64,000 nucleotides of DNA. Source: a virus. Lineage: Duplodnaviria; Caudoviricetes. The DNA lies in IMG/VR virus record IMGVR_UViG_3300042431_000223, positions 1 through 64,000 of that record. One strand, written 5' to 3'. Below, one piece after another: positions 4,701 through 29,640 of the stretch. Both the position numbers and the translations under genes were made by a program. Position 1 is the stretch's first letter, and each line of letters begins with the position of its first letter. A model generated the notes under the pieces. The model was given only the letters and a program-made list of their open reading frames with translations, had not been told where the DNA came from and searched no databases.

Positions 4701-7700
4701 ACTCAGATCTAATACGAGGAGTTGACCAATCAAAACTAGGACTATCACGATTTATATACGTTTCATCGTTAGGTATAGTCTTTCTCCAAATATAGATAGG
4801 ACGAATCTCTGTAACTGTTCTTGTTCCAAAATCCCCATCCTTTACCTCATACGTAATAGCAATATGATTATCATTATACCAGTCTGTTTTTTTGACTCTA
4901 TTGTTTAACTCAATCTCAGTTAATAGGTTATTAAACTTATCTATGATAGCTTGTCTATCACTTTCTTGTGGAGGATAGTCTTCTCTATTTCTTCCTACAA
5001 AGAAATCGCCCTCAAGAAAGTTCTTAGAACTAAGAAGGGCGTCAAAGTAAGGCTCAAACGATTCTGGATTTGCTAAAAACAAATCTGCAAGGTCACTAGC
5101 TTTTTTATTGATTTGATTTCTTTCGTCCTGAGTCAACCTAGAGCGTAACTTGTCCTTAACAACTCTTATAGTTTCTCCGTAGTAAGGAGTAGTTACTTTA
5201 GATTGAAGAGAGTATAAACTTTTGAACAATCCATTTAACGCAGCTTGGTCGGCTTCCGAAATAGTAGTGCTCTCTTTAACTTCTTTCTTTAAGTCTTCTA
5301 TAGATTGCTCTATGTCTTTGATAGTCTTTCCTAATCCTGGATTAATTAAGTTACCTTGTATTGTTCCGTCTGAGTCTCTAAAGCCACGTACAGCACTAAA
5401 CAATCTTTCGTACTTCTCAGTAACTTCAGGATTACTATTATACTTAGACAGAATTGCTTTTATTTGCTCTGTAATGTTTTGTTGTTTTTCGAAGAACTGA
5501 GGTTTAATCTCAACTCTTGTGTTTGCTTCTAACCATTCCTGTTGTTTTTTAGTTTCTACTGCTAGTTGATGTTTCTTTTCACTAACTAAAGCTTGAAAAC
5601 TTTCTATACGGTTATAGTCGTTAGCTGCTTGAGCTAAGTCTATTTGGTCATTAAGTTCACTGATTTGAGCTTTGAGGTTTGAAATTGTTTTTTCAAATCT
5701 GTCTTTGATTTGAGTAAACTTAGTTAGTGCATCTTCGCCAATTACAAACTCAATTACATCTAACTCTTTTCTTGCTTTGTTATAAGCTAAGATAGATTCT
5801 GCAATCTGTCTTTCTTTACTTCCTACTGGTTTTTCTGTTCCATCCTCATTAAATATTGAACCTAGTCTTACGTAATCACGTCTTAACTTGGCTCTCATTT
5901 CTCTTACTGTAGGATTCTTTTCTGATGCGCTTCCTTGTACAGGGTTAGTAATCTCTGCGTCTAAATCGTCATCTCCAAATACACTACTATAAAGTTCTAT
6001 TTCTTTTAAGATTTCAGCACGAGCATTACGAGCATCATCAGTAAGAAGTTTTTCTGCCGTGTAATACTCATCTACAAATTCACGCTCTGCGTAATCCTCA
6101 ATGAATGTAGTTAAGTTTAGTTCTGCTTTATCTATTCTATCTTGGTCTCCAGATTTTCTGGCTAGAATAAGTTCATTTGTTAAGTCACCTAAATCATTTT
6201 GAAACTCAGCTTCCAACATAGGGGTGTTGTATACTTTCTGAGTAATAATTGTAACCTTACCGTTCTTGTCGTAATACTTAACAGGAACTAATCTAAAGAA
6301 TCCTTGAAACTTGTCCCTAGTATTAGAAGACTTAATACTAAAAGTACCTTTAGCACTTTGTAGTATACTTCTTCCAATTCCTTTTTTCTTGTTTCTTGTT
6401 TCTATTCTTTTTTGTATTTCACGAATCTTTGCGTCTTTCTTAAGACTTTCGTTAGTAGCAGCAACAACATGGTCATTAATAAAAGCGTTTATAATATCAG
6501 GTATTACAACTCCTGAATGTCCTCCTACATTTATATAACGACTAAATATTGTCTCAGCTCCCATAGCTTGATCGGTAGCAGAAGTAAGTAATCTTATTAT
6601 ATTTTCAGTAGTTGGAGTAAATGAAAGTGCTTTGTTAATATCAGCTATCTGCTTTTTAGTTTCCTCAACAAGTTTTTTGTTCCCAATAGTTTCAAATCTA
6701 GCTAACTCTTCCTCAAGAAAAGCTAATTCTTTTCTAATAGGATGATTAGGATCTTTCATTTGATCTGCAATCAACTGAAATTTTGCAGCAACTACTTCAG
6801 CTACTGGACTAATTACTTCTTTTTTAGCTATGCTTCTTAAGTTATTAAGATTTTCTGTTGCTTTTTGTAGATTTTCTTTATAGGTAGCAATGTAACTGTC
6901 TATTGTGAGAATTTCTTTTTGGAGCGCTAATCTTTTTTCTGCAATTTGTTCTTGTCTTTCTTTAGTAAGTCCTTTAAAACTATCTTCTAACAACTGCTGT
7001 ACTAAGTTTGTTTCTAAACTTTGAGCTTGGTCTAACAGAGTTTCTGCTAAAATAATTGCACTATTAAGTTTCTTTAAATAAACTTCAGGTTCATAATGAG
7101 ATTTACCTTGACTCAAAGTTTTAATGTCACTAACAAGTTTGTTGGTAAATGTCTTTAACTCTTCCGTGTATTGTAATGTGGCTACAAGACTATCGGCGAT
7201 ATCAGCTGTCGAAATCTTACCGAAGGTATCTTGCAAAGCATTAATAGCTCTTAACTCAAGAGTTTCTTTACCTGCTATTTCCCCAAGATTTTGTCTTAGT
7301 TGATTCCAAATACCACTATCAACATTTGAGTCGATGTAATCATAAAATCCTGTAAGTCGAGCAGAAATTTCAGACTTACTTTGTCTTTGTGCAAAGGGTT
7401 GACTAAATCGAATTTGATTTTCTGCAAGACTGTCTGGAAAGTCTTGTAGAGTCATTAAGTAATCAAAGTAATCATTAAGAGTTTCTTGTACTTGATCAAA
7501 CATGGTTTTACCCATATCCTTAAACAAGTACCGATTAAAGAAAGACTTAATGCTATTCCACATCCTATCTAAGAAACTAAACTGAGACTTTCTTTGGTAC
7601 TCAGCTTGTTGCATACGTTCTCTAAAATATGGGTTAGATAAAAACTCTGCTAAAAACTCTTCTATGTTTTTAAAGCCATACTCGTTTTGTAACTCTGGGT

Positions 7701-8598
7701 AATATGCTTGGTACGTAGTAAAGTACTTTTCCATCTCTTGTACAAATTGTACCTCCTGAGCATTTCTAGGATTGTTTAAGATAGATAAAGTAAATGCGTG
7801 AATAGTCTCGTGAATAATCTCTCTGGCTAAAAACTTATTATTAACTGGAGTAAAAGTAGACTTAGCAATGTGTATTGTATTTGTCTTTGGATCATAAAAT
7901 GATCTTTGATACTCATCAGTCAAATAGATGTCATCAAACAACGCTAACTTTAGTGTAGGGTTTGTTTCCATTAACGGAGACAACTTTCTAAGTATCTCTT
8001 GTTGAAATGGTTCTAGCTCTGCATTGTTTGCTAAGTTATCAATTAACTCTTTTAAAGTTGCATTGTTAAAATCTGCTACAGAGTCTATAACAAATTTAGG
8101 AAACTTAAATTTTTCTAATAAATCCTTACTTATTGGCTGTTGCCTTTTCTCTCCTACCTTTGGCTTTACTGCTAATTGATATCCTCCTGGTACGCTGATA
8201 ACTTCGTGGTCTATCATATCAAACTTAGGATTCATTTGAATCTCAAAGCCGATGTTATCAAAACCCTGTGGTGTCTCTAGAGTTACTCCTAAGTAACCCA
8301 ATCCACCTAACTCATCAATTTGTTCTGCTGCTTGTAATTGTTCTTCAGGTAAGTTTAATCTAAGATGTCTATTGATTTCTCGGATCTTAGGTTCCCCTGC
8401 ATAGTTTATTTTATTACTTGCTCCTATGTGGGGCTTAGTCCAGTCAAAACCTAAATTAGCTTTAAACGTATCTGAGGTAATAGCCTCATAAATTTTCTTA
8501 CCTTCCTCTTGTGGGTACAAAGAAGTAAGTTGATAATATGCAGAACTAACTACATCTTTCCCATTTACAGGGGATTTTATTTTCGCAATACAAGACAT
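1771..8598 (-). CDS. Giant ejected cargo protein (2275 aa) with an N-terminal zincin-like metallopeptidase domain
   Basis: REIIHETIHAF (HExxH, 7798-7812) plus downstream KNIEEFLAEF. Long coiled coils and a C-terminal hydrophobic segment. Third of three giant genes typical of crAss-like phages. Its only Cys is residue 3. Confidence 0.85.
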   Translation of the reverse strand: MSCIAKIKSPVNGKDVVSSAYYQLTSLYPQEEGKKIYEAITSDTFKANLGFDWTKPHIGASNKINYAGEPKIREINRHLRLNLPEEQLQAAEQIDELGGLGYLGVTLETPQGFDNIGFEIQMNPKFDMIDHEVISVPGGYQLAVKPKVGEKRQQPISKDLLEKFKFPKFVIDSVADFNNATLKELIDNLANNAELEPFQQEILRKLSPLMETNPTLKLALFDDIYLTDEYQRSFYDPKTNTIHIAKSTFTPVNNKFLAREIIHETIHAFTLSILNNPRNAQEVQFVQEMEKYFTTYQAYYPELQNEYGFKNIEEFLAEFLSNPYFRERMQQAEYQRKSQFSFLDRMWNSIKSFFNRYLFKDMGKTMFDQVQETLNDYFDYLMTLQDFPDSLAENQIRFSQPFAQRQSKSEISARLTGFYDYIDSNVDSGIWNQLRQNLGEIAGKETLELRAINALQDTFGKISTADIADSLVATLQYTEELKTFTNKLVSDIKTLSQGKSHYEPEVYLKKLNSAIILAETLLDQAQSLETNLVQQLLEDSFKGLTKERQEQIAEKRLALQKEILTIDSYIATYKENLQKATENLNNLRSIAKKEVISPVAEVVAAKFQLIADQMKDPNHPIRKELAFLEEELARFETIGNKKLVEETKKQIADINKALSFTPTTENIIRLLTSATDQAMGAETIFSRYINVGGHSGVVIPDIINAFINDHVVAATNESLKKDAKIREIQKRIETRNKKKGIGRSILQSAKGTFSIKSSNTRDKFQGFFRLVPVKYYDKNGKVTIITQKVYNTPMLEAEFQNDLGDLTNELILARKSGDQDRIDKAELNLTTFIEDYAEREFVDEYYTAEKLLTDDARNARAEILKEIELYSSVFGDDDLDAEITNPVQGSASEKNPTVREMRAKLRRDYVRLGSIFNEDGTEKPVGSKERQIAESILAYNKARKELDVIEFVIGEDALTKFTQIKDRFEKTISNLKAQISELNDQIDLAQAANDYNRIESFQALVSEKKHQLAVETKKQQEWLEANTRVEIKPQFFEKQQNITEQIKAILSKYNSNPEVTEKYERLFSAVRGFRDSDGTIQGNLINPGLGKTIKDIEQSIEDLKKEVKESTTISEADQAALNGLFKSLYSLQSKVTTPYYGETIRVVKDKLRSRLTQDERNQINKKASDLADLFLANPESFEPYFDALLSSKNFLEGDFFVGRNREDYPPQESDRQAIIDKFNNLLTEIELNNRVKKTDWYNDNHIAITYEVKDGDFGTRTVTEIRPIYIWRKTIPNDETYINRDSPSFDWSTPRIRSEYKNPNYKFSGQARPRKDAKDSKYVNQDYDKLDDEEKSIMQDILDIYEDDQRMLPVGQRLKGYVMPNVTKDNKEEVSDYRRPLYKLYSAFSSLKLFLKANVPGMGDEEIEEDILQSRKESQIKGRGKNVRLIKTRYKEPLSAIDSTDNILQALAAFSTYTAEFKGLQKALPTIFALRDSFAEKAQEVPAQDTSKIRAVWNKFKSGGNTTQKELILDQIDDQIEKFFYGATLRGGGNSAIGRVVNRAINHITNRFQKFVLRYNPLRMPKNVVANILNATGNSSKFGLSKQEMLMGMARAAKHRSELIGLEQGIDKLSPYLAQLIYFRAIPLADPTNLYRSINSGFVTRYLNADNFNAQWFSSNEAISTLGVYEGIMAKTYVDFTGPNTPPGYQIKLKDAYDYVDGVLVPKDGVLGISRARLNELVTQRNEFIADYLLKNNVTDYKKLKPVQQVQLSKEIDVKFGAKIKAEEKAIGEKIEKLRQIENYVRDQVFQLYTSTQGNYFRRGRAHYESIVWMKLIFTMKSWFWPQAANLYGGKKFSVTTGRLDEGSYGVFMGALRRSVLGLNTKGKSLSMDYRWSEREKEATSRVIQHMGASTIMYTLSYYFANVAMAALKGAGDDDEQDWEKYLLAILLLGSFNEYAGTLNPVYSPLIQYNKFKTDPLKKSYEKEGLGSKAFRVGYTALFGQQINAIDKILDGYGLIGKTIGTIPRDAKRWYEGKGTFGDIFDEPYAEISGDGYGYVLPHARVKAYEGESAWAVGLSKVSGVEVGIKSMDFGTKLIQQVSFTPAPGLTNPVGQMNTILSRLDELEKNFNRLSAEDLMAVEKNILRYDYNPKKDKVTAVPNETLLNYKMNLADNDEIAKILQEVSLLSAERDRLLSSKEGYAYLRNYEENKRAAAAIGKSRSDFFDSMTESVTGYSKPKFQKSQELYENEARASLYLQLRGIQIGQKDADIRKAYKEEEDARIKEQTSQLPID

Positions 8599-8604
8599 TT
8601 GTTA

Positions 8605-8634
8605 CAAATTTAATTGATTTTAGAAGTAAAGCAA
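8605..8634 (-). promoter_or_regulatory. Bacteroidota sigma70-type promoter, likely giving a near-leaderless mRNA
   Basis: TTG(8634-8632)-N19-TAAATTTG(8612-8605); only 6 nt (TAACAA) separate it from the ATG at 8598. Confidence 0.78.
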
Positions 8635-8640
8635 TTTATG

Positions 8641-11600
8641 TTATAATCCAAGAGAAAGTTGACAACTTACTTCGGTAAAGTTTAATGGACCCATGTTACC
8701 TTTATCATTTCCTTTATCAAGTCCGTTATCTACCTCAGGTGCTTTATTATCAGGAGGAGTAAGAGTAGGACCACTTGGAGGATCTGGAGTAACAGGAGGT
8801 TCATTGTTAAACATTTCATCTGCTAAAGAATTTGAATCCATCTTGGGAGTCCATCTAGAATATCCTGGAAGAACTTCTTCTTGATATCCTTTAAGTTTTA
8901 AATACTTCGCTATTAGCTCGTCAGAAAGATTACCTTTAGCATACTGATTGCCTACACGGAAAGATGCCCCTGCTTGCACAGCAAGTTCCAATAAAGGTTT
9001 GTACTTGTTAGTTAAAGTCTCTTTGATTTGAGCTTCAGTAACTCCTCTAAATAAACCGCTACCAGAAACCATCACAACATCACTAGCGCTGTACTTACCT
9101 GTATTAGCTTTGTTTCCCCACGCCTCTCTGTATTTATTGGTTGAACTTACTGTTGCCTGACCAGATTGGAATCCAATAAACTGTGTAGATTCAGCAGCCA
9201 TCTGTATATCTTTTGCTGCATTACCTGCCATATCAGTAGGCTTAACTCCTGCTAGTATTAATGGATTTGTCTGTTGAGGTTTTGTTGAAGTTGCACCTAA
9301 AGGATTTGTTGGCATTTCTTGAGTCAAAGGCATTACTCTTCTCATTGTAATAGTTACTCTGTATGAACCAGCTTCATAGTTCTTTCCGTCAATTTGTGTT
9401 GTAAGAGCAGGTAAAAAACTATCTTGGGGTTTAGGAAATGTTCTATGAAAAACTCCTCTATTTACTCCATTAACTCCAAATACATAAGCTGTACCTGCTT
9501 GTAAATTTAGTTGTTTAGGATCACCGTCTCTTGACTCAATTGAAAAGTTACCAGTACCTCCAAGATTAACTCCAATAACAGGATAACCTAAAGCAGAACT
9601 ACTTTCATCTACATCATTGTGAGAACTAATAAAAGTATCTGCTTCATATAAATTAATAATAGCTCCATCATAATAAGTCATATCTACTCCTGATGCTTTT
9701 TGCATCAACTCTTTAAATCTAGGAGTAATAGGAGCTAGGGCTTGTCCGTTTATTGACTCGGTATAATAACCATATTTAGTTTTATTTGCAGGACTAATAA
9801 CGTCTGGGATATTCATAGCTTGTCGACCAGTATTGTTAGACTTATAATCCCATCTTAAGCCTAGTCCAATCATTTTACTTGCAGATGCACCTTTATTAGT
9901 TTTAGCTGCTTGGCTTTCTAAATAAGGTTTTAAATAGTCAAATAATTCTAACTGTTCTTCTTTAGTAAGCGCACCTTGGTTTACATAGATGCCTTCTTTT
10001 ACTTCAGTTCCTTTTGGCGTAACACTAGTAGATGGTTGAGTAGAAACAACAGGTTTAACCTCTGTTGGTTTTTCTCCAGTTACTGCTTCACGTACTTTAT
10101 TTTCTAAAATCTGAACTTTACCTACTAGCTCTGGGTTTAAGATTCCCATCATATCAATACTTATTGGAGAGTAAGCAGATAGGAAAGATGGTAATGGTAA
10201 AAGCAAACTATCAGAACTGTTGACTTTTATAGACGTATTAAATCCAACTAAACTTAAGTACCTTCCAAATGTTTCTGGATTATTCTTTTTCATATCCATC
10301 AACTTGTTGTAAGCATCTGTAGTTAAATCTATGTAAGCTTCAAAAGGAACCACAGTAGAAACTTTACCTTGGTTAAAGTGTGCTCCGTTCTGCATAAACG
10401 AACCGAGAGCTAAGTCTTTAAAAAAGTTTCTTACTTTCTCATCAGCATGATTCATTCCTTCTAGAAACGCTTCTCTGTACTCTTTAGTGTACTCAGAAAT
10501 TTCAATATTCCTTATACCAAATACAACCTCACGAGACAAAGGATTAAGAGATTCTTCATCTATATAAAGATTACTAAATAAAAAGTTTGTTCTTAAGTCA
10601 GGGTTAGTTGCTAGTTCTTGATAACGGTCTAACATATTTCCTGATATTCCTTTTATGAACTGTCCTTTCTCACCTCTATAGTATTCTAAGTACGATGTTC
10701 CATCAGGGCGATTTCCAAACATTGCAACGTAAGTATATAAGATGTTATTCTTATACGTATCAATTGCTTTTCTCTTCTCTTCATCTTCAGTAATGTCTGC
10801 ATACTCTAACATTTTACCTAAACGTTCATGAACCTCTGGTGAATCTGTAAGAGGGAATATCTGAGTCATTACATCTAACGTAAAAGAACCTACGTTAAAT
10901 TGCGCTAATGCACTGTCCTTAAAGATAAACTCAATTGCTTCAGGATTAAATGCATCCTTTAGTCCTTCTTTCTTTTGCACTAGTTCTGTACTTTGAAAAG
11001 TAGTTCTGTAGTTTGCCGTGTTAAAGTCAGCTACACTAGTCAACTCACGTAAGCTTTCTTGCTGTGCAATAACTACTCCAAACTGTAACAAATAAGCTAT
11101 GTTGCGATAAGCTATGTCCTCAGAAGTAGCTAGTTGTTTGGTAGGGTCAAAGTTAGTTAAGTGTTCTTGGATTTTTGGATTTTGTATCAACAACTCTATA
11201 AACTGTTGTACAGACTCTTTCCCTTTTACTTTATTCTCTTTCTGTCCCTGTTGTAAATTTACTATTGCACTTTTTAATTCTATGTCTTTAATAGGATCTA
11301 TAGAAGCCAACAATAATTTTTTGATAGAAGAATACTTACTAGTGAATCTTTTGTTAATCTTGCTGTCAATCTTAGATCTATTTCCCATCTCAAGAACTAA
11401 CTGTACAGGACTAGATTTGATAAAGGCAATTACATCTTTTATAGGCGTTCCTGCAAGAATCATAGCATGAGCTAAAGGACTTGTCTCTTGGTTCATCCCT
11501 AAAAGAATAATCCAGTCTTCTTTAGCAATATCTACGTGGCCGTTAATAAATTCACTTAGTACCTTAGATATACGATTACCATCTTGTCCTTTCTTACCTC

Positions 11601-14600
11601 CTAAAGAAATATTACCGTCAGCATCTCTATTAGCTTTTAGGAAGTACATATTAAGTAGAGGGGATTTGTACTTAAGATTAGCTAACTGAAATTCTTTCTG
11701 CATAGTGTTAATCTTAGCATCGATACCTAAAGCATCTTTAGACAAGATATTCTCTGCATAAATCCTCCAAGAGGTCATAGGATTAAATACATTGGTAGTA
11801 GAGATAGTAACTCCGTTTCCTGCGTACTCGGTTAGAACGTTATTGTTGTTAGGAGCAACTAAGTAATCATACAACTGACCTATAGACAAAATCTCTTTTA
11901 AGGTAGATACTAAGTTATTAGTTATTCCTTTTTTGTAGTTTTCAATCTCGTTAATCTTTTGATTAATCTCTGCAAGATCACTTCGCACTTGTGAAATAAT
12001 TCCTAGAGACTTAAAATCTACAGATTGATTAGTTGCTTTTAAATCAGCAATTGCTCGCGATCTTGTTTCTACTTTTTCAGATAGTTTGTCTAAACCTGCA
12101 GCTTTATCTTCTGGAGTAATTTCGGACCTATCTAACAACTCATTAAGAGCCTTAACACTTTTATCAACTTCTTTATTAAGTTTTTTAAGTTCTTCCTTTA
12201 AATCTTTTCTACGAGCATAGGCTGGATTAGTTTCCAACTCTTCTCTCAGTAATCTACTTATAGAAACTAAACGTTGCTTTTCTCGTTTTAAGTCGCGTTG
12301 CTCTTCTAACTTACTTTTGTAGACTTCAAGATTAAACTCTTTACTTACTATCTTACCATTCTCATCATAAGCTGTTTCGAAGAAAGTTAACTTATCAATG
12401 TCATAGTCACCTCCAGACTTAACTACAATCTGCGCAGGAAGAATCATAACGGCCCCTGAAGACTCAGGTAAGAACTCTTTTATGATTACATGCTCCATAG
12501 ACTGAAAGCCTTGTACAGGAATACGTACTCCTGCCATAGTAATTAAGTCTTTATGTTTTTCTCTCCATAGTGCAGCTAAAGGACTATTAGATTTTAGAAT
12601 TTCGTTGAGTGTTTGTAGATTTCCAACAGGTTTATCTTTATAAGTTAGCTTAAGTAACCCTGCATGTTTTTCTGGATTAAATCCAATCTTTACCTCCATA
12701 GGTAAAGTCTTACCTGTAGCAGGATCAAATCGGTAGAACTGTAGTTCATTAGCACCGTACTCAGCAAGTTGTTCTGCTGTAGGTTTAGCAAATCTTCTTC
12801 GCTCAAACCCTACTCCTGCAACTTGGATATAACTTTCTCCATGAACCTTTTGATTAATAACTTTGTTATTGATGAAGTTCAGTAGAGTAGATTCAATTTG
12901 ACTTCTGTCTTTAATAGCGTCTAAAGGATATTTAAGATTTCCACTCTCATCTATTTGAATAAATTTACGTAAGGATTCTGGAACCTCATTCTTTTCAAAC
13001 TCCTTAGTAATATAACTAGCGAGTTGTAATTGATTTAAATTTGTTATGTTACCTTGAGCATCTCTAGTTATTCCTAACTTTCTTTCTAGTTTAACTTGTT
13101 CAAAAGCAACCATATCTTTAACGGTCTTTTTGAATGTGTCGTATAAATTAGATACTTGTGCTTGAGTTTCTTCACTAAAGTCCTCAGACAGTTGACCAAA
13201 CTCATAGAAATCTCCAAACACAAGTTTCATCATCTGTGTAGATAGAGTACTTGTTTCTTTAAATTTAGGAGCTTGATATTGTTGCTGCCTTAAGTTCTGT
13301 AGATGTATTGAAGTTACATTAGCATTTGACAATGCATCGTTAACTACTTTTATCTTACCATCAGGACTATCTACCTCTTTGTAGAAATCAAGCATTTCTC
13401 CAAAGTCTGCCATCTTAGAACCAGACTTAAAGGTATAGTAGTCTATTTGGTTTTTGTACATTAACTCTAGTTGTTTCTCTAATTGCTTTCCAAGTACAGC
13501 ACTGGGAACTATTGGAATTAACGAGTACTTATGTAATGCAATAAGTTTAGGATCTTCTACAATAGACCCATAATGCCCTAATTTTAATGGAGGAAAAGGA
13601 ACTATTCCCTGTTTGTTTATTAGACTGTTTCTTTCTTCTATTAACTCTTCAGCATTAGTTGGATTAGTTTTTAACTCAGAACCAATCTGAGCTATTCTAA
13701 CTTGATCGTTGTACGCAGCTTCTTGTTCGTCACTCCAGCCTTCAGTAGAGATTAAATAGTTTCTATAAAAGTCAAGAGTAATTAAACCTTGAGCATTGCC
13801 TTCTTCGTCACTTTTCTTTACATATGCGCTGTATTCAAACTTATCACTTTTTGCTAGTGAGTCCCATAAACCACTATCGTAGACTTCCTTGTAAGTAGCA
13901 AATTCTTCGTCAGTAAAAGTAAGTACGTCATTATAAACTACAGTTCTTACAACGGGGCTAAATTTGTGTTCTACTCCCGTCATTGCAATACTAATTGCAT
14001 CTTGGTTTATGTCTTCTTCAAAAAATTCCTCTAAAGCACTATCCCAGAAAGGAGGAATACCAGGAGAAGAAGTAAAAGGAATACGTTTAAATACCTCGCG
14101 TGCATCCTTTGCTAGTTTGTTAAAGTTACCCATGTTACCAACAAACATTTTCATAAACTCAACGTTGTGTATGAAACCGTTCTTAAGGTAAGTTTCTGCT
14201 AAATATTCAATGTTTTCTTTAGTTACTTTTGGCTTAACTCCTTTAGGCAAAAGCTGGGTATTAATAAACTTAAGTTTGTTTAAACTTGTTACAGCCTCAG
14301 ATAATCTTTCTGCTTGTGAAGCTATCTGGCCTTTAGAGTTTACAGGAAAAGATAAAGTCTTAACTAATTCTTTTGCTAGTTTCTTAGCCTCCTGACTAAA
14401 ATATGCATCTAATCTATCTGGTAAAATTTGAACAGCTTGGTCATATAGTCTTTGTATATCTTCTTTAGTCTGTGCGTCTTTTACAGCATTAGCTATTTCA
14501 GGAATTATAGAAGAAAAAATAAATAAGTTCTTACCTTGTTTATGGTACGTAGTATTCGCTCCTTGAGGATTCTCCATTAAATCTAGAACTCTACTAAACT

Positions 14601-17019
14601 CACCAGCTAGGTAGTTAGTCATAGTTTCTAGAAAAACTTTTCTAGCAGCTAAGTCTGCTTCGTCTCCTCCTATGCCTTCTAACTTACTGGGTACAATAGG
14701 TACGTATATCTTTTCTCCTAATACAGGATTACTAAAAGACATACTAAAAGAACTAGACTTATCACCAAAACGAATGTTTTCCATTTCGGTAGATTGAAAA
14801 AATCCTAAAAAGTCTTGAAGTACTTTATCTCCTGGATGTAAGTCTGTAGTAGTTTGTCCTACTTTACTTTCAAACTTTTTAATCTCTAATCCGTTATAAT
14901 CCCTTACTTCAATATCTACAGGCAAACCAAACTTCTTCCTCTTAGTGTACGAATTTAATGGGTTCGCTTCAATCTCTGCAAGTGTAGTAGGCAATCCAAA
15001 CAATCTATTTAACCAAAGAGAACCTATAACGTCAGGATTTCTTCTATAATCAAATCTTTCAAATCCTGGAGTATTAATTAACTCTTCGTAGTTTTTAGCC
15101 TCATTAATAGCTTTAGTAGTTTGAGTTAAGTAAAACCAAGGACCTCTTGTAAACTTCTTTTTGTCATCTGCTGTTAAGTACGAACTTGGTCTAAGTTCAA
15201 TATCAAAAGTACTTATGTATTCAATTAGTCGTTTAGCTTCTGTTTCTTTTTTAGCTAAGAATCCTTTAAAAGTATTTGCATCTCGGATTCCTTTTCCAGC
15301 AAGCTTATTCTGTGTAACAAAACTGTTTATAACTTCTTGTACGTCTTCAGAAAAGTTTTGCCCATCAGGAAATACTTGATTGTCTGAGTTAGCTATGTAC
15401 GTAAGAGGGCCTTTAATTACTATAGTAGGTTTTCCGTTTTTAGCTAATGCATTATTTATTTGATTAGTTAAAGTAAGTTTAAAGAAAACATTAGAGTAAG
15501 GCTTAAAGTTTTCTACAAACACCTCAATTGTCTTATCGATGTTTGATGGTAAAAAGTAATCTTTGTTTGAAAGTCCTGCACCAAGAGCATTAAGAAACTC
15601 AGAAAATTTATTAATGTAAAAGTCTTTCTTGTTTCCTGTAAACAATGCTTGTATTTTTTTTGCACTTTCTGCAGGAGTGTTTCTGCTAGACAAAGCATCA
15701 ATAACTGTACTATTACTTCCTCCGAACAAAGGAGTAAAATCAGAAACAAATTTAGCTAGGTTAAACTCAACTCCATTTTCTCCTTGGATTGCGTAATCTT
15801 GATTAAATGCAAAGTATTGTTTATCTAGCTGATTAAATAAATTTTTAATATTTCTATATCCTTTGATTTGTTGTGTTACTATTCCTAGGTTTTTTTCATT
15901 GTTAATGTTTACTGAGACGGCAATTGTTTCGGGATTACTAAAAATTCTCTTTAGTCCCATTGCAAACATAATTTGCTTAATAGTTTTCAAACTTCCTTTT
16001 ACTCTAGGATCAGGAAGACGTTTTATCAATAAGTTAAATTGAGGATGAGTTATTGCTAAGTCCTTAATTGCATCATACTGTTTTGTATAATCGGTAATTC
16101 CCGATAAAGCCGTACTAATTAAGTTCCAGTTTCTTTGGAAGTCTCCCGACTTAGGTAAGCCAAGTAATCCTCCTTTGATTAAAACTCTTTCATCGCTGTT
16201 ATAGGGTCTATTTGCATCAAAGTTAAACTCACCTGTAGCAGCTCTTCTGTATGAAGGTAAAGAAGTAACTAAACCTAAGATACGTTTACTTGATCTTTGT
16301 TTTTGTCCTTTGTTAGTCCAATCTTCTCCTTCTCCAATATCTGCGGCTCCTTCATCTACACCTACAACAGTATCTTGACTTAAGTACCATTCTTTAAATA
16401 ACTCAAAGTTATCTGCTATTTCAGTAAGAGCTTTAATTTGTTTTACTTGACTAGGTAAAACATTCTTAGGATCTAGTTGACTAACTAATGTATTTTTTTG
16501 GTCTAAAATAGCTTTTTGTGCTTCTGCCCAACTGTTAGTACTTCCCAACAAGTATTCAAAGGTTTCAAAAATCTCTTGTGACTCAGCTTCAGTAAAATGG
16601 ACTTCAACAGGAATACCCCCAATATTTGCATTATAAAAGTTGATTGCTCTGTTTGTAGGAATATTTACACTTTGAATTTTTTGAGATAAGATATCATCTT
16701 GGATACGTTGACGTTGCTCTATATAATCTAGTACTTGATTTAAGTTATAATTACCTGAATCGTTCTTATGGTACTTAGAAGTAAAGTCAGCAAAGAAAGT
16801 ATCAGCTATTATCTTTAGAGCCTCTATCCTATTTCCTTTAGTTATAGGATGAGCCATTAGCTCTTGGTATAATGGATTGTCGATTACTTCGTCTCCAACT
16901 TTAATCTTATCTAAAGGTTGTTCATTGTTTTTATTCCAAACAAATATTATTGAAGATGGCTTCAAGAAACCTTCGTATTCCTTTTCGTAAGGCGTACCTT
17001 TTATACTACAAGCGTTCAT
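8641..17019 (-). CDS. Virion-packaged DNA-dependent RNA polymerase (crAss-like, phi14:2 gp66-type) with C-terminal AlkB-like dioxygenase and an additional alpha/beta domain
   Basis: Catalytic KSGGDYDIDKL motif (DxDxD, 12394-12408) preceded by RIPVQGFQSM; 2792 aa; central of three giant genes. AlkB motifs HND (9613-9621), H (9445-9447) and RVTITMR. Confidence 0.92.
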   Translation of the reverse strand: MNACSIKGTPYEKEYEGFLKPSSIIFVWNKNNEQPLDKIKVGDEVIDNPLYQELMAHPITKGNRIEALKIIADTFFADFTSKYHKNDSGNYNLNQVLDYIEQRQRIQDDILSQKIQSVNIPTNRAINFYNANIGGIPVEVHFTEAESQEIFETFEYLLGSTNSWAEAQKAILDQKNTLVSQLDPKNVLPSQVKQIKALTEIADNFELFKEWYLSQDTVVGVDEGAADIGEGEDWTNKGQKQRSSKRILGLVTSLPSYRRAATGEFNFDANRPYNSDERVLIKGGLLGLPKSGDFQRNWNLISTALSGITDYTKQYDAIKDLAITHPQFNLLIKRLPDPRVKGSLKTIKQIMFAMGLKRIFSNPETIAVSVNINNEKNLGIVTQQIKGYRNIKNLFNQLDKQYFAFNQDYAIQGENGVEFNLAKFVSDFTPLFGGSNSTVIDALSSRNTPAESAKKIQALFTGNKKDFYINKFSEFLNALGAGLSNKDYFLPSNIDKTIEVFVENFKPYSNVFFKLTLTNQINNALAKNGKPTIVIKGPLTYIANSDNQVFPDGQNFSEDVQEVINSFVTQNKLAGKGIRDANTFKGFLAKKETEAKRLIEYISTFDIELRPSSYLTADDKKKFTRGPWFYLTQTTKAINEAKNYEELINTPGFERFDYRRNPDVIGSLWLNRLFGLPTTLAEIEANPLNSYTKRKKFGLPVDIEVRDYNGLEIKKFESKVGQTTTDLHPGDKVLQDFLGFFQSTEMENIRFGDKSSSFSMSFSNPVLGEKIYVPIVPSKLEGIGGDEADLAARKVFLETMTNYLAGEFSRVLDLMENPQGANTTYHKQGKNLFIFSSIIPEIANAVKDAQTKEDIQRLYDQAVQILPDRLDAYFSQEAKKLAKELVKTLSFPVNSKGQIASQAERLSEAVTSLNKLKFINTQLLPKGVKPKVTKENIEYLAETYLKNGFIHNVEFMKMFVGNMGNFNKLAKDAREVFKRIPFTSSPGIPPFWDSALEEFFEEDINQDAISIAMTGVEHKFSPVVRTVVYNDVLTFTDEEFATYKEVYDSGLWDSLAKSDKFEYSAYVKKSDEEGNAQGLITLDFYRNYLISTEGWSDEQEAAYNDQVRIAQIGSELKTNPTNAEELIEERNSLINKQGIVPFPPLKLGHYGSIVEDPKLIALHKYSLIPIVPSAVLGKQLEKQLELMYKNQIDYYTFKSGSKMADFGEMLDFYKEVDSPDGKIKVVNDALSNANVTSIHLQNLRQQQYQAPKFKETSTLSTQMMKLVFGDFYEFGQLSEDFSEETQAQVSNLYDTFKKTVKDMVAFEQVKLERKLGITRDAQGNITNLNQLQLASYITKEFEKNEVPESLRKFIQIDESGNLKYPLDAIKDRSQIESTLLNFINNKVINQKVHGESYIQVAGVGFERRRFAKPTAEQLAEYGANELQFYRFDPATGKTLPMEVKIGFNPEKHAGLLKLTYKDKPVGNLQTLNEILKSNSPLAALWREKHKDLITMAGVRIPVQGFQSMEHVIIKEFLPESSGAVMILPAQIVVKSGGDYDIDKLTFFETAYDENGKIVSKEFNLEVYKSKLEEQRDLKREKQRLVSISRLLREELETNPAYARRKDLKEELKKLNKEVDKSVKALNELLDRSEITPEDKAAGLDKLSEKVETRSRAIADLKATNQSVDFKSLGIISQVRSDLAEINQKINEIENYKKGITNNLVSTLKEILSIGQLYDYLVAPNNNNVLTEYAGNGVTISTTNVFNPMTSWRIYAENILSKDALGIDAKINTMQKEFQLANLKYKSPLLNMYFLKANRDADGNISLGGKKGQDGNRISKVLSEFINGHVDIAKEDWIILLGMNQETSPLAHAMILAGTPIKDVIAFIKSSPVQLVLEMGNRSKIDSKINKRFTSKYSSIKKLLLASIDPIKDIELKSAIVNLQQGQKENKVKGKESVQQFIELLIQNPKIQEHLTNFDPTKQLATSEDIAYRNIAYLLQFGVVIAQQESLRELTSVADFNTANYRTTFQSTELVQKKEGLKDAFNPEAIEFIFKDSALAQFNVGSFTLDVMTQIFPLTDSPEVHERLGKMLEYADITEDEEKRKAIDTYKNNILYTYVAMFGNRPDGTSYLEYYRGEKGQFIKGISGNMLDRYQELATNPDLRTNFLFSNLYIDEESLNPLSREVVFGIRNIEISEYTKEYREAFLEGMNHADEKVRNFFKDLALGSFMQNGAHFNQGKVSTVVPFEAYIDLTTDAYNKLMDMKKNNPETFGRYLSLVGFNTSIKVNSSDSLLLPLPSFLSAYSPISIDMMGILNPELVGKVQILENKVREAVTGEKPTEVKPVVSTQPSTSVTPKGTEVKEGIYVNQGALTKEEQLELFDYLKPYLESQAAKTNKGASASKMIGLGLRWDYKSNNTGRQAMNIPDVISPANKTKYGYYTESINGQALAPITPRFKELMQKASGVDMTYYDGAIINLYEADTFISSHNDVDESSSALGYPVIGVNLGGTGNFSIESRDGDPKQLNLQAGTAYVFGVNGVNRGVFHRTFPKPQDSFLPALTTQIDGKNYEAGSYRVTITMRRVMPLTQEMPTNPLGATSTKPQQTNPLILAGVKPTDMAGNAAKDIQMAAESTQFIGFQSGQATVSSTNKYREAWGNKANTGKYSASDVVMVSGSGLFRGVTEAQIKETLTNKYKPLLELAVQAGASFRVGNQYAKGNLSDELIAKYLKLKGYQEEVLPGYSRWTPKMDSNSLADEMFNNEPPVTPDPPSGPTLTPPDNKAPEVDNGLDKGNDKGNMGPLNFTEVSCQLSLGL

Positions 17020-20000
17020 TAGTTACAGGGTGGTGGGTTTTTAGTTTCTGGGGTGTGATCTCTCTCATCTAAATCTTTTGTATCACCTAAAGTTAGACCT
17101 AGCGAATTTAATATAAGTAACGCATTTTTAGCTTCACTGTCAGTAAATTCTTTGTTAGATTCTTTAATTTGATTAATCTGATTTTCACTAATATTTATAG
17201 GCTGACTTGCTTTAGGATTAGCTGTCCGAAGGTCTAACTGAGTCATAACGTTCTTGTCGTATGTCAGCTTAATAACTGCATCAGATATGTCACTTTTGTT
17301 CTGAGGTAATACAGGAACTCGGTTTGCAGCTTGCGTCAACATGTTAATTGTGATAACGCCATCATTTACTTCGTACTGAGAAGCGTAAGCATAGATATTA
17401 ATACTAACTACAGGCAAGTCAAAGTCTTCTGATAGTATAGCATAGGTAGTCTGTTGACTTCCCCATTTCTTAATGTTTGAAGGTATTTTATCTGTAGAGA
17501 TATAAAGACCATTCTTAAAGTGCTGTTCATTTCTAAACTTCTTATTTTTAAAGTCGATAATATGAACTCCTCCATCAGCATCTACTGCTACAATATCCAT
17601 AGCACCTGCTACACCAGCATAACCAGTTGCTAGTTTTTCTGCATCAGTAAACTTACGGTAAACTACAAGTCCTTCGGTAAATAGCTGATATCCGTTGCGG
17701 TTTAGTTCTTTCTTAAATTCCTGAAGTTCTTTTACAGCTGCGTCAAACTGTTCTTGAGTTAGTTCTAGTTTATAACCTTTACCGTCTCTAAGAACTTTAC
17801 CCATACCTTCTGCTTCTTTAATGTACTCTTCTCTAGATTTTAAAGTACGCCCTCCAAGAACGTCACGGCCAATAATATCAAGTAAGTTACCGACAGCAGC
17901 ACCTAACTCCATTAACTCTTTATTTTCTGTAGGCTCTCCAGTTTCAACTCCATTAGTATCTGCGTCTCCTAAAGTTCTCTTAGTAAATCCAGATTGACGC
18001 TCATACTTCTCCCCATCAATAATGTAACCTACTTTATCAGGATCAGGTATAGTTTTAGCTTTAGCAACTAATTTGTTAAGCGATTCTATTGTTTTGTTTT
18101 GGCTATCCGCATTAACAATAACTCTAGTTACTTTTTCTGACTTTTTAGTTTCTACAGGAGAAAGACTTTCTGTTACAGGAATCATTTCATCTGTAAAGAA
18201 TTCGTAGACAAGACTTCGTGTTATTGTTCCATCTTTATCCTGCTTCTTATCAACTCTAGGTCTTCCATTTAATTGAACTCCTTTATTAACTCTCTCCCCT
18301 TCTTTTACTTTTCCTCTTAAACCGTCCATTGCTTTTTGTTGTGAAGTAACTTCACCTTTACCTTGTTTACTTGTAGGTAAATAAACTAGCAAAGCTTGAT
18401 TACCATTATTTGTTTTATTACCCTCACTATCAAACTTTTGAACACGTCCCTCAGTATCAACTGCTGTAAATGTCAAAGCATTTAAATCTTTAAAGTCAAT
18501 ACCTTCTGAAGCTATTATAGGGAAAGTTAAAACTGTTTCAGGATCTTTAACATCAAGGAAAGGAAACCATTGTTTATCGAACATTTCATTTCCTTTACTA
18601 TCAAGCATAGGATTTCCTTCTGCGTCAAGAATAGGAGTTTTCTTCAAAAATAAAATCCTATCATTCTTAGAAAGAACTTCTACGTCTCTTACAACTCTTC
18701 CGTCTTTTAAATTAATTTGAGCTACTGTCTTAGGTTCCCATTCTCCTTTTGCATTTTTCCTTGCTTTGTTAAGAGCAAAGATTTCAGCTTGAGTTGCATT
18801 TTTATTGATTTGAGTTTGTTGATTAACGTCTACTCGAGAAACATTTCCAATCATCTGAGAGTCAAACATATAGTTCAATGCAGATGCTTTCATAAATCCT
18901 TCTGGAAACAATCCCATAAACTCTAATTTAAGCTGAGCTAAACGTTCAGGAGTTGGCTTAGATTTAACTTCGTTAAAGATAGTTTCCATCTGCTGTAAAG
19001 TAGATTCACCAAGAACTTGTTCAATAACAGTAAACAAATCAACAATACTAGTATTAGTAGTTCTATGTTCTTTATCTATAGTTCTAGTTATTTTCTCTTG
19101 TACCCCAGCATGTTTTGCGTCCTTGTGATTTTCGCTATTTGGTATAAATACAGGACTAGTTTCCATTAACTGAGTTTGATTGTTAACTTGACTTACCTGC
19201 TCTTCATTCTTAGGAGGCTCAGGATTAGTTTCAGCATTAGATGCTTTGTAATTTACTTCAGTTGTACCTACGTTAAAGTCGGTATCAAAAGGAGACACAG
19301 GGGCTTCTATGATTGTTTTAGCTTTTTTGCTTTTCTTTGCTCTAGCGTCTTTTTTCTTTTTAGCAATTAAATCTCTTATACTACTATACCTAGGATCAGT
19401 ATCAGGATTCATAGATCCGTAGAAAGTAGTTGGAGATTTAGATGTAACTCCTCCTATCCCTCCTGGGTACTGTAGTATGAAATCTATAAGATCTTGTGGG
19501 CTTATCTCTTGACCTCCATTTAAATCAGTTGCACGTTGTGCTATTCTATCTAAACTAAATCCTTCTCCTTTCTTACCAAGATAGCCAAAGATAATTGCTT
19601 TACCTTCTCTACCCTGTAAGTTTGCTTTATCTGAAAATGCAACAAAAGAATCTCTAGTTACTCGCATCTCATCTAAAGCTTGGGCAATGGGAGGCAAGTC
19701 TCCTACACCAGATAAGAAAGCTTCTTTCTCCATTTGATACTCCATGTACAGCTGTTCGTCAGCAATAGCATCTTGTAACTCTTCTTCCCTACGTCGAGCG
19801 TCTTCTTCTCTTTGTATTCTTTCTTGCTCTTCTCTAGCTGCTAATTCTTCTGGAGTTAACCTAGGTTGATTCTCAAGTAAATTTAATTGTCTCCCTCCAG
19901 CACTTCTAGGTTTTTCTATAGCAGCTACATCATCTGTAGAAGCAGCAGTAGATTCTTCTAAATCAACTATTGGATCTTCTATAATAGGCTCTACAACTCT

Positions 20001-23000
20001 AGGTGCAAACTTCAGTTTGCTTGTATCCATGTTTGCTTTAATTAAAAGCATCTCAAACATGTGTGTGTAGTCTTCTTCAAACAGTGGCTTGTCGTTAGCC
20101 ATTGCCTCCATTAACTCAAGAGTCTTAACAATGTCTTCGGGAGTAGAACCTGCAGCTTCCATAACAACACGCATTTTAGCTTGTGCGGCTTCTAAAGAAT
20201 CAGACTCTAATATATCTCCTAACAAGTTAGCTATTATAACAGCTCGTTCTTTACTATACTCTTCAGTAGTTACTAACTCTGCTTCAGTTTCATTTTGTGT
20301 AGTAACCACTTCAGTCTCAGGCATAGATTCTAGCATCTCAACTGCCTCAGTAAATTCTGGAGTAACGTCACTAGGTAAAAGTTCTGGACTAGTTACTTCT
20401 ATTGTTTTACCTGTTTCAGAATCTATTTCTTCGGTAGTTACTGTTTCTCTTGCCTCGGTACTAGTATCCGTAGGTTGTGCTGCTTCTCTTCTCTGCCTTC
20501 TTTCTTCTACCTTCTTATCTATGTCTTTTCTGTTTCCGTCTGTAAAGTCTAAGAAACTTCCAGTATCATAAAATACACTTTGAGGAAAACTATCTGCATT
20601 CTCAATTACCTCAGTTAAAGCAATACCTAAATCATTAGATTGATTAACAATTCCTTGCCACCACTCTGTTTGTTTTTGGTCTCTTTCTTCTTGGTCTTCA
20701 ATTTCCAATAATTCTCTTGGAATTACTTTAGTAATTGCTTTTTTAAGAATACCGTCTACCTCTGTTTTTCTATTTGCTATGTCTTCAAATTGATCACTAT
20801 ACTCTTTAACTATTGCTTCTAGTTCAGCATTTTGCTCGTCGTTTAATTGTTCTATTGCCTCGTCTCTATCATAAGAAGAGTTTTCATCTACTCCTTGTTC
20901 CGCAGTTTGGTTTATGGTATTATAATTTTCTCCTAAAACCGTTTGCAGATACGCGTCTATATGTCTTTCTTGTTCAACTTCTAGTGCTTCAAGTTGTTGG
21001 TCAAAATAACCATTCAAAAAAGATATTAAATCTTTTCCTCTGTCAGGAGCCAAGTAAGCTTGAGCTAAAGCATTTATTAACTCTTCTTCGCTACTTATAC
21101 TCTCTAGGTTAGTTGTAGTATTTGTATTTTCTATATGATCTACAATAGGATTGTAAGTACCTGCTTGTATAGCATTTTCCTCTGCTTGTTTACGTTCTTG
21201 TATCAGAGTAGACAGACTGTCTCTGTACTCCCTCATACTGTCTACAAAGTACTGAGGTCTTTCCTCAGCAATAGCTAATGCAGTAAAGTCATCTACTTCT
21301 TTTTCTACACTTTCTAGATTTGAAGTAGTACTTAATCTTCCTAGTCCTAATTTCTTTTTTACATTATCGTCAAGAACAGCTTTCTTATCTTCGTCTGTCA
21401 TTTGACTATAAAAGTCTGCTCTTTCCTTGTACTCAGAGATTTTTTTGCTAGCCTCTTCTGCTTGTTTTAAAAGTTCTTCTTTTTGTTCTGGAGTGTATGT
21501 ATTCTTTTCTAATCCTGTTAACTTTTCTTCTATAGACTTTTGTTTAAGTACATTCTTAAAGTAATCAAACTGAAAGTTAGGATCTTCCATTAAGTCTACT
21601 AACTGAGTTACTTTACCTGCTCTTGCATTTCTCAGTTTACTTATTCCATACTCTTTTTCTACAGATTCAAGTTCTTGGATTTTGCTAATAACTTGAGCAG
21701 CTTTATCTTGTGACATCTCACCAGCTTTAACTGCCTCTTGTACTTTGTTTTTGTAGTACTGAGAGTTAAGCATAATGTCATACATCTCACCATACTTTCT
21801 ATTCTCTTTATATTGCTTAAGTTGGTTTTTTACACCAAAAGGAAAACTAACAAATGCTCCTGCAAATGCACTCTCGATACCTTCTAAAGTAAGTTCTTCT
21901 TTAGGTTTTGCTTGTAGGTTAGCTAGTCCTAAATTACTAGCTGCTACATTTAAGATTTCTGCCGTAACCTCTTCTAATCCTTCTTCTGCTCCTCGACTAA
22001 TCATAAGTCTGCCAACAGCTCCTCCTTTTCCTGCTAGGGCTAAAGAGCGAGTTGCTAAATAATCTAACGCTTTGGGAGAAAAAGCATCTCCAAAAACATT
22101 TCCATATAATGTTCTATACTGTTGAAAACTTCCTCTCCACGCTTTGCCTAAAACACCTGCTTCTGCAAAATCATCTAAGTAACGCATTTCTGGGAAAACG
22201 TTTTCTGTAAATACTTCAATAGATGTAGTAATACCTGCAACTGCATGTGCTTTTGCACTTGCATTTTCTACACCTCGTTCATACAAATCATTGTAAGTAC
22301 TTACGTATGTTTGAGGATAAATTATAGATCCCATAGCTATTGCACCAGGAACCCTTTGACTTAATAGATTAACTAATGGATTTTTACTTGCAGCAGTTAC
22401 AGTTTGAAATGCTTTAGAGTAACTGTTGGTAGCTCCTAATATCTGAGTAAATTGTTTTGCTCTGGTAGCAGACATCAAACCTTTACCAATTAGGGTAGTC
22501 ATTCCTGCACTTAATCCTCTTCCTGCTAAAGCAGTTATTCCTGTACCTCCAACTAAAGTTGATATAACCAACGGAGTCATTTGTGCTCCTTGATATAATA
22601 AAGTACTTGGTTGGTAGTGTTTTTCTCCTGATTCATCTATAAATGTATAATCAGCAGTTGTTTGAAATTGTCCTTTTTTGTTTACTCTTTCAAAGTTTAC
22701 AAGTTCGTCAACAGTAACCATATTGTTGAATCTTCTTGACTTAGTTTCGAGCCAATCCCATCCTGTCATTTTTCCAACTGCCTCTACCATTTGTCCTGGA
22801 ATTAAAGCAGCTCCAGAAAAAAGATGCTGCCCTGTTCTCCAAGTAGTAAATCCTGCTTTCTTCCAATTTGTTTCTCCAAATTGAATCTCAGCTTTTGCTT
22901 GCTTTTTATCTTCTAAGTCTAGGTACGAAGTGAGGAATCCTTTTAACTCAGAATTACTTCTATAGTTTTTAGGATCATGAATTTCTGCAACTTTGGTAAT

Positions 23001-26151: not shown

Positions 26152-26154
26152 AGC

Positions 26155-29373: not shown

Positions 29374-29434
29374 TAACTTTAAATATTAATTAACTTTATA
29401 AGTTAAGTATACTTGAACTTAAAAAGTGTAAGTA

Positions 29435-29464
29435 CAAATATACTCTATTACCAATAAAAATCAA
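29435..29464 (-). promoter_or_regulatory. Bacteroidota sigma70-type promoter for the cargo/giant gene operon
   Basis: TTG(29464-29462)-N19-TATATTTG(29442-29435); intergenic. Confidence 0.8.
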
Positions 29465-29468
29465 GAGT

Positions 29469-29618
29469 TTACTTACCTTGACCTCTGTACGCCTTCTGAT
29501 AATTCTTGCTCTGTTTTAACTTAGAAGATTTAGTCTTAGCGTGTACGCCAGGACGATTTACCTTTGGTTTTTCTTTATGCAGAGAAGAACTTGATGTAGT
29601 TTTACTTTTAGTTGCCAT
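29469..29618 (-). CDS. 49-aa highly basic microprotein (below the ORF track cutoff)
   Basis: MATKSKTTSSSSLHKEKPKVNRPGVHAKTKSSKLKQSKNYQKAYRGQGK*; fills the gap exactly, has an AT-rich leader and no acidic residue except one Glu. Confidence 0.75.
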   Translation of the reverse strand: MATKSKTTSSSSLHKEKPKVNRPGVHAKTKSSKLKQSKNYQKAYRGQGK

Positions 29619-29640
29619 CTTATTAATTATGAATCAATAA

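Follow-up and report, generated by a model that had tools for sequence, protein, structure and literature searches.

Why would three adjacent giant genes of a tailed phage encode proteins that are almost devoid of cysteine, and hold the few cysteines that they have at the very ends facing each other in gene order? This question is raised by the window analysed here, a 64-kb stretch (positions 1 to 64,000) of the IMG/VR virus record IMGVR_UViG_3300042431_000223, itself 75 kb long and 64% complete. The minus strand of the window carries a structural module of the crassvirus type, with PHROG matches to the large terminase, the portal, the major head protein and a large virion structural protein, downstream of which lie cargo open reading frames (ORFs) and then three giant ORFs, referred to below as P1, the RNA polymerase (RNAP) and P3. 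The best explanation of their cysteines appears to be a head-to-tail disulfide chain, P1-SS-RNAP-SS-P3, to which we assign a probability of roughly 65%. The genes concerned and their facing ends are the following:

17019..24407, minus strand: P1, first chain member, 2462 amino acids (aa), distant relative of crAss001 gp47 (BLASTP E 4e-7)
17025..17027, minus strand: codon of P1 Cys2461 (translation)
8641..17019, minus strand: RNAP, virion-type, middle chain member, 2792 aa (BLASTP to phi14:2 gp66, E 4e-13, and to crAss001 gp50, E 1e-9)
17008..17010, minus strand: codon of RNAP Cys4, in MNAC (translation)
8644..8712, minus strand: RNAP C-terminal tail with the motif L-x-F-x-E-x-x-C (LNFTEVSC), Cys2786 codon 8662-8664 (alignment A3: F79, E81 and C84 conserved)
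1771..8598, minus strand: P3, last chain member, 2275 aa, relative of phi14:2 gp65 (BLASTP E 1e-16)
8350..8598, minus strand: P3 N-terminal module, residues 1-83, starting MSCIAKIKSP, Cys3 codon 8590-8592 (alignment A6: C3, A5, I7, S9, P10 and G13 invariant)

A first-pass annotation of this DNA had counted four cysteines in the three giants and none in the cargo genes upstream, and translation confirms both counts and positions exactly. P1 has a single Cys, the penultimate residue 2461, in a tail that ends KNPPPCN; the RNAP has only two, at residue 4 (MNAC) and at residue 2786, within the terminal VSCQLSLGL; and P3 has one, at residue 3 (MSC). Translation likewise bears out that the outer ends of the row, the N-terminus of P1 and the C-terminus of P3, are free of Cys. 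All four codons are TGT, and the upstream ORFs of 576, 1072, 704, 417 and 79 aa contain no Cys at all. The 1.22% Cys content of the window's other minus-strand ORFs would predict 92 Cys in the 7529 aa of the giants, against the 4 observed (Poisson P about 3e-34), and, were Cys placed uniformly, all four would fall inside the four facing end zones of 7 residues with a probability of about 2e-10. The P1 stop and the RNAP start overlap (TAATG), and a 42-nt gap separates the RNAP from P3. The two junctions differ both in their tails (KNPPPCN versus LNFTEVSC) and in the N-terminal ends that they face (MNACSIKG versus MSCIAKIK), so that mis-pairing would be prevented.

The terminal Cys pattern is real and very strongly conserved, and it is not a product of chance. 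Two scans of viral contigs with the RNAP yielded 29 loci at 34-66% identity, and a third scan added 79 more. The 1/2/1 pattern is kept in all 29 close loci, with the P1 Cys in the last 1-4 residues, the RNAP Cys at residues 4-6 and again in the last 1-4, and the P3 Cys at residue 3; stray internal Cys number only three across this set. Counterparts of the four cargo ORFs of 417 aa and more have no Cys in any relative, and these upstream proteins seem to be Cys-free in the manner of N4-type ejection proteins rather than members of the chain. A broader HMMER search with the RNAP core gave 150 representatives with pairwise identities below 50%; in 95 of them both ends bear a Cys, and most of these have no other Cys in 2300-4800 residues. 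Representatives that lack the N-terminal Cys are mostly N-truncated ORFs or fusions of P1 and RNAP (at least 1500 extra N-terminal residues), apart from about ten with an intermediate extra N-terminal length (70-850 residues); nine lack the C-terminal Cys, most of which look truncated. In an alignment of 24 RNAPs with a mean column identity of 19%, the N-terminal Cys is as invariant as the catalytic aspartates.

The first-pass annotation had proposed a search for terminal enrichment and gene-order complementarity of Cys in related giant genes, and both are found at about 188 junctions in a census of 93 non-redundant loci, in which ORFs were taken to start at their first ATG and an end zone was defined as 10 residues. 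A C-terminal Cys faces an N-terminal Cys at 187-188 junctions, the former lying within the last 1-4 residues at 171 of 188 and the latter at residues 3-6 at 187 of 188. Clean chain ends, where no Cys faces outwards, were counted 64 times upstream and 33 times downstream, and the chain proteins hold just 27 internal Cys in 634,021 residues (0.004%). Outside the chain, both terminal Cys are present in only 3 of 91 adjacent ORF pairs from the same loci. Three apparent orphan Cys were all explained on inspection, which leaves no true orphans: one reflects the over-extended start of a small ORF that truly begins MASC, in another the partners are separated by inserted homing endonuclease genes, and the last belongs to an unrelated GIY-YIG gene. 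Chains comprise 2 to 5 members. A five-member arrangement, at L095, has proteins of at least 1196, 1326, 3837, 209 and 1953 aa; L063 includes a 165-aa link, and L082 and L085 an extra member of 655-782 aa. In all four of these loci the internal members carry Cys at both ends, while the first lacks it at the N-terminal end and the last at the C-terminal end.

A cause at the nucleotide level, such as translational coupling or junction signals, was considered and rejected, as the Cys pair survives inversion of the P1 strand, gaps of 550 nt and the insertion of endonuclease genes. Because the pair persists with P1 on the opposite strand or with genes inserted, the signal lies in the protein and not in the DNA. 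Mis-called starts were also discarded, since the N-terminal Cys never varies and is found 3-6 residues from Met starts that are themselves conserved; two over-long ORF calls (cr110_1 and L012) prove to begin MSC and MASC. At L098:11711-13050 and L041:17428-19606, chain members are separated by small genes that leave the partners' terminal Cys undisturbed. By eye, one of the genes inserted at L098 has a GIY-YIG-like N-terminus, and at L041 a Pfam GIY-YIG gene is located further downstream of the block (25496-25846). P0120, from locus L039, contains no Cys and is uninformative: beyond its stop all three frames hold stops under table 11, and only about 1.4 kb of contig is left; in the region downstream of P0120 (L039:24544-25921), one stop-filled frame shows an HExxH motif (HEILGH).

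The rule also holds in 14 named crassvirus genomes, namely crAss001, phi14:2, Kolpuevirus and eleven uncultured gut crassviruses. In phi14:2, the sole Cys of gp67 is its last residue, gp66 has Cys only at positions 3 and -2, and the sole Cys of gp65 is at position 3. In crAss001, the sole Cys of gp47 is at -3 and that of gp49 at 5, and gp50 has three, at 5, 1334 (internal) and -9; the pattern recurs in Kolpuevirus. In both crAss001 and Kolpuevirus the P1 homologue lies on the opposite strand, away from the RNAP start, and keeps its C-terminal Cys. Natural fusions occur as well. In eight Suoliviridae genomes, P1 and RNAP form a single protein of 4460-5801 aa, free of Cys at its N-terminal end and with one 2-11 residues from the C-terminus; it is followed by a protein with Cys at residue 3-5, and in one of these genomes, cr10_1, the record breaks off short of that partner's C-terminus. 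In two Intestiviridae genomes it is RNAP and P3 that are fused; P1 retains its C-terminal Cys, and the fusion, whose C-terminal end lacks Cys, starts with MSC (for cr110_1, when read from its second Met). The pair is thus missing exactly at the fused junction, which implies that it exists only at breaks in the polypeptide, and in such two-member systems only gene-order pairing is possible.

Faecal crassviruses (L030-L038 and L124-L125) have 103 internal Cys in 72,052 residues (about 0.14%), about 30 times the level of the metagenome loci (L001-L121), with the terminal pairs all kept. Internal Cys reach 32 in cr130_1 and are absent from the window and from the marine phage phi14:2. The higher level in gut crassviruses is in line with weaker selection against stray thiols in an environment poor in oxygen. 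In four of these genomes (L032, L033, L035 and L037, i.e., cr4_1, cr53_1, cr115_1 and cr130_1), the annotated giants hold 18-80 in-frame stops under table 11, and these phages seem to use stop-codon recoding.

By comparison with these relatives, P1, RNAP and P3 are most likely the packaged and injected cargo of a divergent crAss-like phage. Proteomics has detected homologous proteins in the virions of phi14:2 and crAss001, the only two phages for which packaging and ejection of an RNAP of this type are known. The series gp67-gp66-gp65 of phi14:2 (gp66 being PDB 6VR4) and gp47-gp50-gp49 of crAss001 are homologous to the window's three proteins, occupy the same position after the muzzle and cargo genes and follow the same Cys rule; they differ in that identity is only about 22-28%, in that the window's RNAP carries an AlkB-like domain, and in the opposite strand of crAss001 gp47. 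The RNAP core has tblastn matches in 38 Crassvirales records (21-27% identity), its DxDxD motif, in which the two-barrel type has Ile or Val at the fourth position, reads DYDID invariantly in alignments A1 and A2, and its gene fits the position of the phi14:2 gp66 type, after terminase, portal, capsid, muzzle-like and cargo genes (PHROG). None of the three giants has a PHROG match of its own, and phmmer against PDB sequences gave no match. Other features of the block are:

24421..33005, minus strand: four Cys-free cargo genes upstream (576, 1072, 704 and 417 aa), outside the Cys chain (translation)
12394..12408, minus strand: catalytic DYDID motif, RNAP residues 1538-1542, two-barrel type (motif scan; D1538, D1540 and D1542 invariant in alignment A1)
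9340..9993, minus strand: AlkB-like 2OG-Fe(II) oxygenase domain in the RNAP C-terminal extension, residues 2343-2560 (Pfam PF13532, 51.9 bits against a cut-off of 31.2)
7798..7812, minus strand: HExxH motif of P3 (zincin-type), residues 263-267 (motif scan; I262, H263 and E264 invariant in alignment A4)

Where the window has the AlkB-like domain, the RNAPs of relatives carry other C-terminal extensions of varying length. The second His of the P3 HExxH motif (residue 267) belongs to the consensus of alignment A4 and is not among its invariant residues; a motif scan also places an HExxH at 245 in phi14:2 gp65. An AlphaFold model of P3 residues 1-450 gave no significant Foldseek match, and its fold matches to HExxH enzymes are weak (E 0.2 and above).

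The junctions themselves provide further information. Many close relatives, though not the window, encode between RNAP and P3 a link protein of 165-216 aa with Cys at both ends, for example at:

L002:16977-17573, link protein
L004:18626-19276, link protein
L005:17016-17534, link protein
L021:17679-18290, link protein

The last 40-70 residues of the link protein are homologous to the RNAP tail of the link-less loci L001, L019, L020 and L024 (BLASTP E 2e-8 to 5e-4). The link-protein tail had no BLASTP match to the window's own RNAP, whose tail could be grouped with these tails by alignment A3 alone (14-40% identity). On either carrier the motif L-x-F-x-E-x-x-C is conserved, and it always precedes the invariant MSCxAxIKSP of P3. 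The same shift of the tail between carriers is seen between L085 and L104, which do not represent a simple fusion pair, as only the last 64 residues (the tail) match. Judged from these alignments, the tail before P3 belongs to the junction and not to the carrier protein. That the tail follows the junction is expected if it docks on the next member, and is hard to fit with self-closure.

On the receiving side, the P3 model has a mean predicted local distance difference test (pLDDT) of 77, with 56 for the first ten residues, and a hairpin at 6-17. In a structure search of 48,161 chains (VIA), P3 residues 3-83 match residues 2-95 of phi14:2 gp66 (Z 7.1, root-mean-square deviation 2.5 Å over 77 residues, 23% identity), and a profile comparison of the P3 N-terminal module with the gp66 N-terminal end (L122:10808-11137) gave an hhalign probability of 81% (E 1.2e-5). 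A database-wide sequence search with the P3 module profile did not recover 6VR4, and the N-terminal module of the window's RNAP shows no similarity to those of P3, gp65 or gp66. The resemblance is thus no more than suggestive; it may reflect a shared N-terminal Cys module, placed on one chain member or another depending on the lineage. The top structural match of P3 is the PhiM1 pre-infection ejectosome protein (8vb2_A, Z 8.0, 147 residues), over P3 residues 177-379 (about 7462-8070, minus strand); this match with the model may fit an ejection role, but its score is within the range of unrelated helical folds.

Altogether, these observations led to a model in which the cargo proteins would be kept free of Cys apart from a single thiol at any end that meets a neighbour. 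The C-terminal tail of one member would dock on the N-terminal module of the following one, and the facing thiols would then form an inter-protein disulfide inside the particle. The three proteins would thereby be joined into one thread of about 840 kDa, equivalent to the natural gene fusions of crassviruses and to the single giant virion RNAP (vRNAP) of N4-like phages. The pairing in gene order suggested by the first-pass annotation, the C-terminal end of P1 with the N-terminal end of RNAP and the C-terminal end of RNAP with the N-terminal end of P3, is the one that the comparative data predict.

That the link is a disulfide formed in the virion would follow by analogy with the cyanopodophage A4 (A-4L), in which the virion map from cryo-electron microscopy reveals a Cys1715-Cys5 disulfide between gp27 and gp26, the C-terminal helix of the former being docked in the latter (PNAS 2025, PMC12002296). 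We checked the genome of this phage: gp27 (1717 aa) has its sole Cys at -3, and gp26 (1114 aa), the product of the next gene, has its sole Cys at 5. As in the window, the genes are adjacent, with a sole Cys near the C-terminal end of one product followed by one within the first six residues of the next. Phage A4, a T7-like podophage, differs in that its single link joins two ejection proteins of the channel type, whereas the window would encode a multi-link chain that includes an RNAP. The authors of the A4 study treat the disulfide as a local stabiliser and not as a general rule (PMC12002296). Comparison of the window's proteins with A4 gp26 and gp27 gave an hhalign probability of 0.1% and a best BLASTP E of 0.13; the window's chain may work like the A4 pair, yet as far as its sequence tells it is not a member by descent. 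The first-pass annotation had considered the mechanism undescribed. For crassviruses we likewise found no description: terminal Cys are mentioned neither in the crAss001 structural atlas, the phi14:2 RNAP preprint and the 2026 N4 paper nor in the results of text searches. In general the view needs qualifying, since a head-to-tail disulfide with the same sole-Cys signature has been seen once, in phage A4.

The same facing ends could be joined in another manner, by a metal bridge (involving the thiols, perhaps with Glu, Asp or His) or by other thiol chemistry. Such a bridge would make an oxidising step unnecessary and suit phages of strict anaerobes, and the tail preceding P3 does hold an invariant Glu three residues before its Cys (alignment A3). 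However, each end has one conserved Cys with no conserved His or second Cys beside it, and the sole solved analogue, in phage A4, is a disulfide; we consider this chemistry unlikely. The thiols could also be wired differently, the internal members closing on themselves while the outer proteins pair, or copies of the same protein forming homodimers, which is feasible with each protein present about six times in a virion. Self-closure fits the Cys counts as well as a linear chain does. Yet the two-member systems created by fusion leave only the gene-order pair, a complete rewiring would be needed at each gene split, the tail motif before P3 tracks the junction on any carrier, and the bond in phage A4 joins adjacent gene products; homodimers would, in addition, leave the Cys-less outer ends unexplained (the 64 and 33 clean ends). 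Such wiring seems quite improbable.

It is also conceivable that the terminal Cys act separately, as portal or capsid anchors, as acylation or other modification sites, or as redox sensors. The portal and other virion proteins contain Cys, a Cys at residues 3-6 could well be a modification site, and the bond itself is a proposal; separate roles would not, however, lead one to expect strict complementarity at about 188 paired junctions with essentially no orphans (against the 3 of 91 control pairs), nor that both members of a pair vanish together in fusions, and there is little reason to favour them. Cysteine-switch latency is known from the pro-peptides of matrix metalloproteases. By a similar switch, the incoming tail thiol or Cys3 of P3 could cap the zinc of the P3 HExxH motif and keep a protease latent, an idea that draws on the conservation of the motif at 263-267 (H263 and E264 invariant in alignment A4) and on the description of phi14:2 gp65 as zincin-like (phi14:2 RNAP preprint). 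Only 55 of 188 junctions have an HExxH in the first 600 residues of the downstream protein, none of the 76 junctions into RNAPs has one, and the small link proteins inspected lack it too; that the junction Cys rule holds in lineages devoid of a zincin domain is largely seen already. A zincin cysteine switch was rejected as the general cause, and this reading is very improbable.

Several points weigh against the proposed disulfide chain itself. Evidence for the bond is indirect in every crassvirus; inter-subunit disulfides elsewhere in crAss001 virions (crAss001 structural atlas) speak in its favour. The hosts have a reducing cytoplasm and many are gut anaerobes, which makes it hard to say where and when oxidation would happen. 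The 75-kb record yielded no thioredoxin- or Erv1-type gene, a search that is uninformative since the record is 64% complete and the Erv1 control matched nowhere. Cys counts alone are compatible with other topologies, and the lack of detectable homology to A4 gp26 and gp27 makes that precedent an analogy. Finally, locus L040 (10001-26897) has a junction between an RNAP and a helicase-like protein without a Cys pair: the RNAP (3656 aa) has Cys5 and no C-terminal Cys; the next ORF, in another frame, encodes 836 aa with PIF1/AAA_30 helicase matches, has no N-terminal Cys and ends in Cys as its last residue; and it is followed by an 1124-aa protein with Cys3. This is either a true junction without a pair or an unnoticed frameshift.

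What such a tether would do is more speculative. It may serve ordered N-to-C ejection, or equal co-packaging, and dissolve in the reducing cytoplasm; a function as an ejection train is plausible. The first-pass annotation had the oxidation follow lysis and the linked proteins threaded through the tail in fixed order, which goes further than the comparative data and would be conjecture. More tentatively, and with somewhat less than an even chance, the chain may be a redox-reversible "polyprotein by disulfide", in which 2-5 cargo proteins would be docked by their tails, locked by one disulfide per junction, packed in equal numbers and passed N-to-C through the tail in a single strand, until the host's reducing cytoplasm separates them, which could time the release and activation of the RNAP. 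The crAss001 structural atlas reports disulfides only in the tail barrel, the hubs and gp57, and takes the ejection order as probably set by packing and interactions.

Other phages solve related problems differently. In the fused Suoliviridae (P1+RNAP) and Intestiviridae (RNAP+P3) proteins, the same modules occur in the same order with a peptide bond instead of a Cys pair; the phi14:2 RNAP preprint remarks on such fusions and supposes cleavage into parts. The vRNAP of N4-like phages (Schitoviridae) resembles the window's RNAP as a giant ejected polymerase with extreme Cys depletion, but it is one polypeptide without Cys, with nothing to tether, and belongs to another polymerase family. The earlier statement that the N4 virion RNAP has no Cys is borne out: N4-like phages have none in these proteins, an absence attributed to the avoidance of periplasmic disulfide catalysts. 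The window's giants, with their four conserved terminal Cys, depart from this Schitoviridae type. In the 2026 N4 paper, the N-terminal domain, core and C-terminal domain of the vRNAP are suggested to have possible counterparts in the three crassvirus proteins, and the crassvirus ejection proteins are called unresolved. The T7 proteins gp14, gp15 and gp16 are likewise ejected through the tail and almost Cys-free, but they have no facing terminal pairs, gp14 having a single Cys at 2 (L127:1729-2319) and gp15 and gp16 none. As Cys2 of T7 gp14 has no facing partner, the pair rule does not extend to podophage ejection proteins in general.

Crassviruses, which outnumber all other phages in the human gut, have to get about 700-840 kDa of protein associated with the polymerase through a narrow tail. 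If the proposed chain is correct, the tether would explain both the order of ejection and the stoichiometry of the ejected proteins. Phages already in culture and data already at hand would allow a direct test of the idea. The Cys rule also offers annotators a simple aid, since chain members and their true start codons become recognisable. Were the chain confirmed, the "polyprotein" fusions would be recast as the same solution achieved by another bond, and a conceptual link would run from crassviruses to the single giant vRNAP of N4-like phages.

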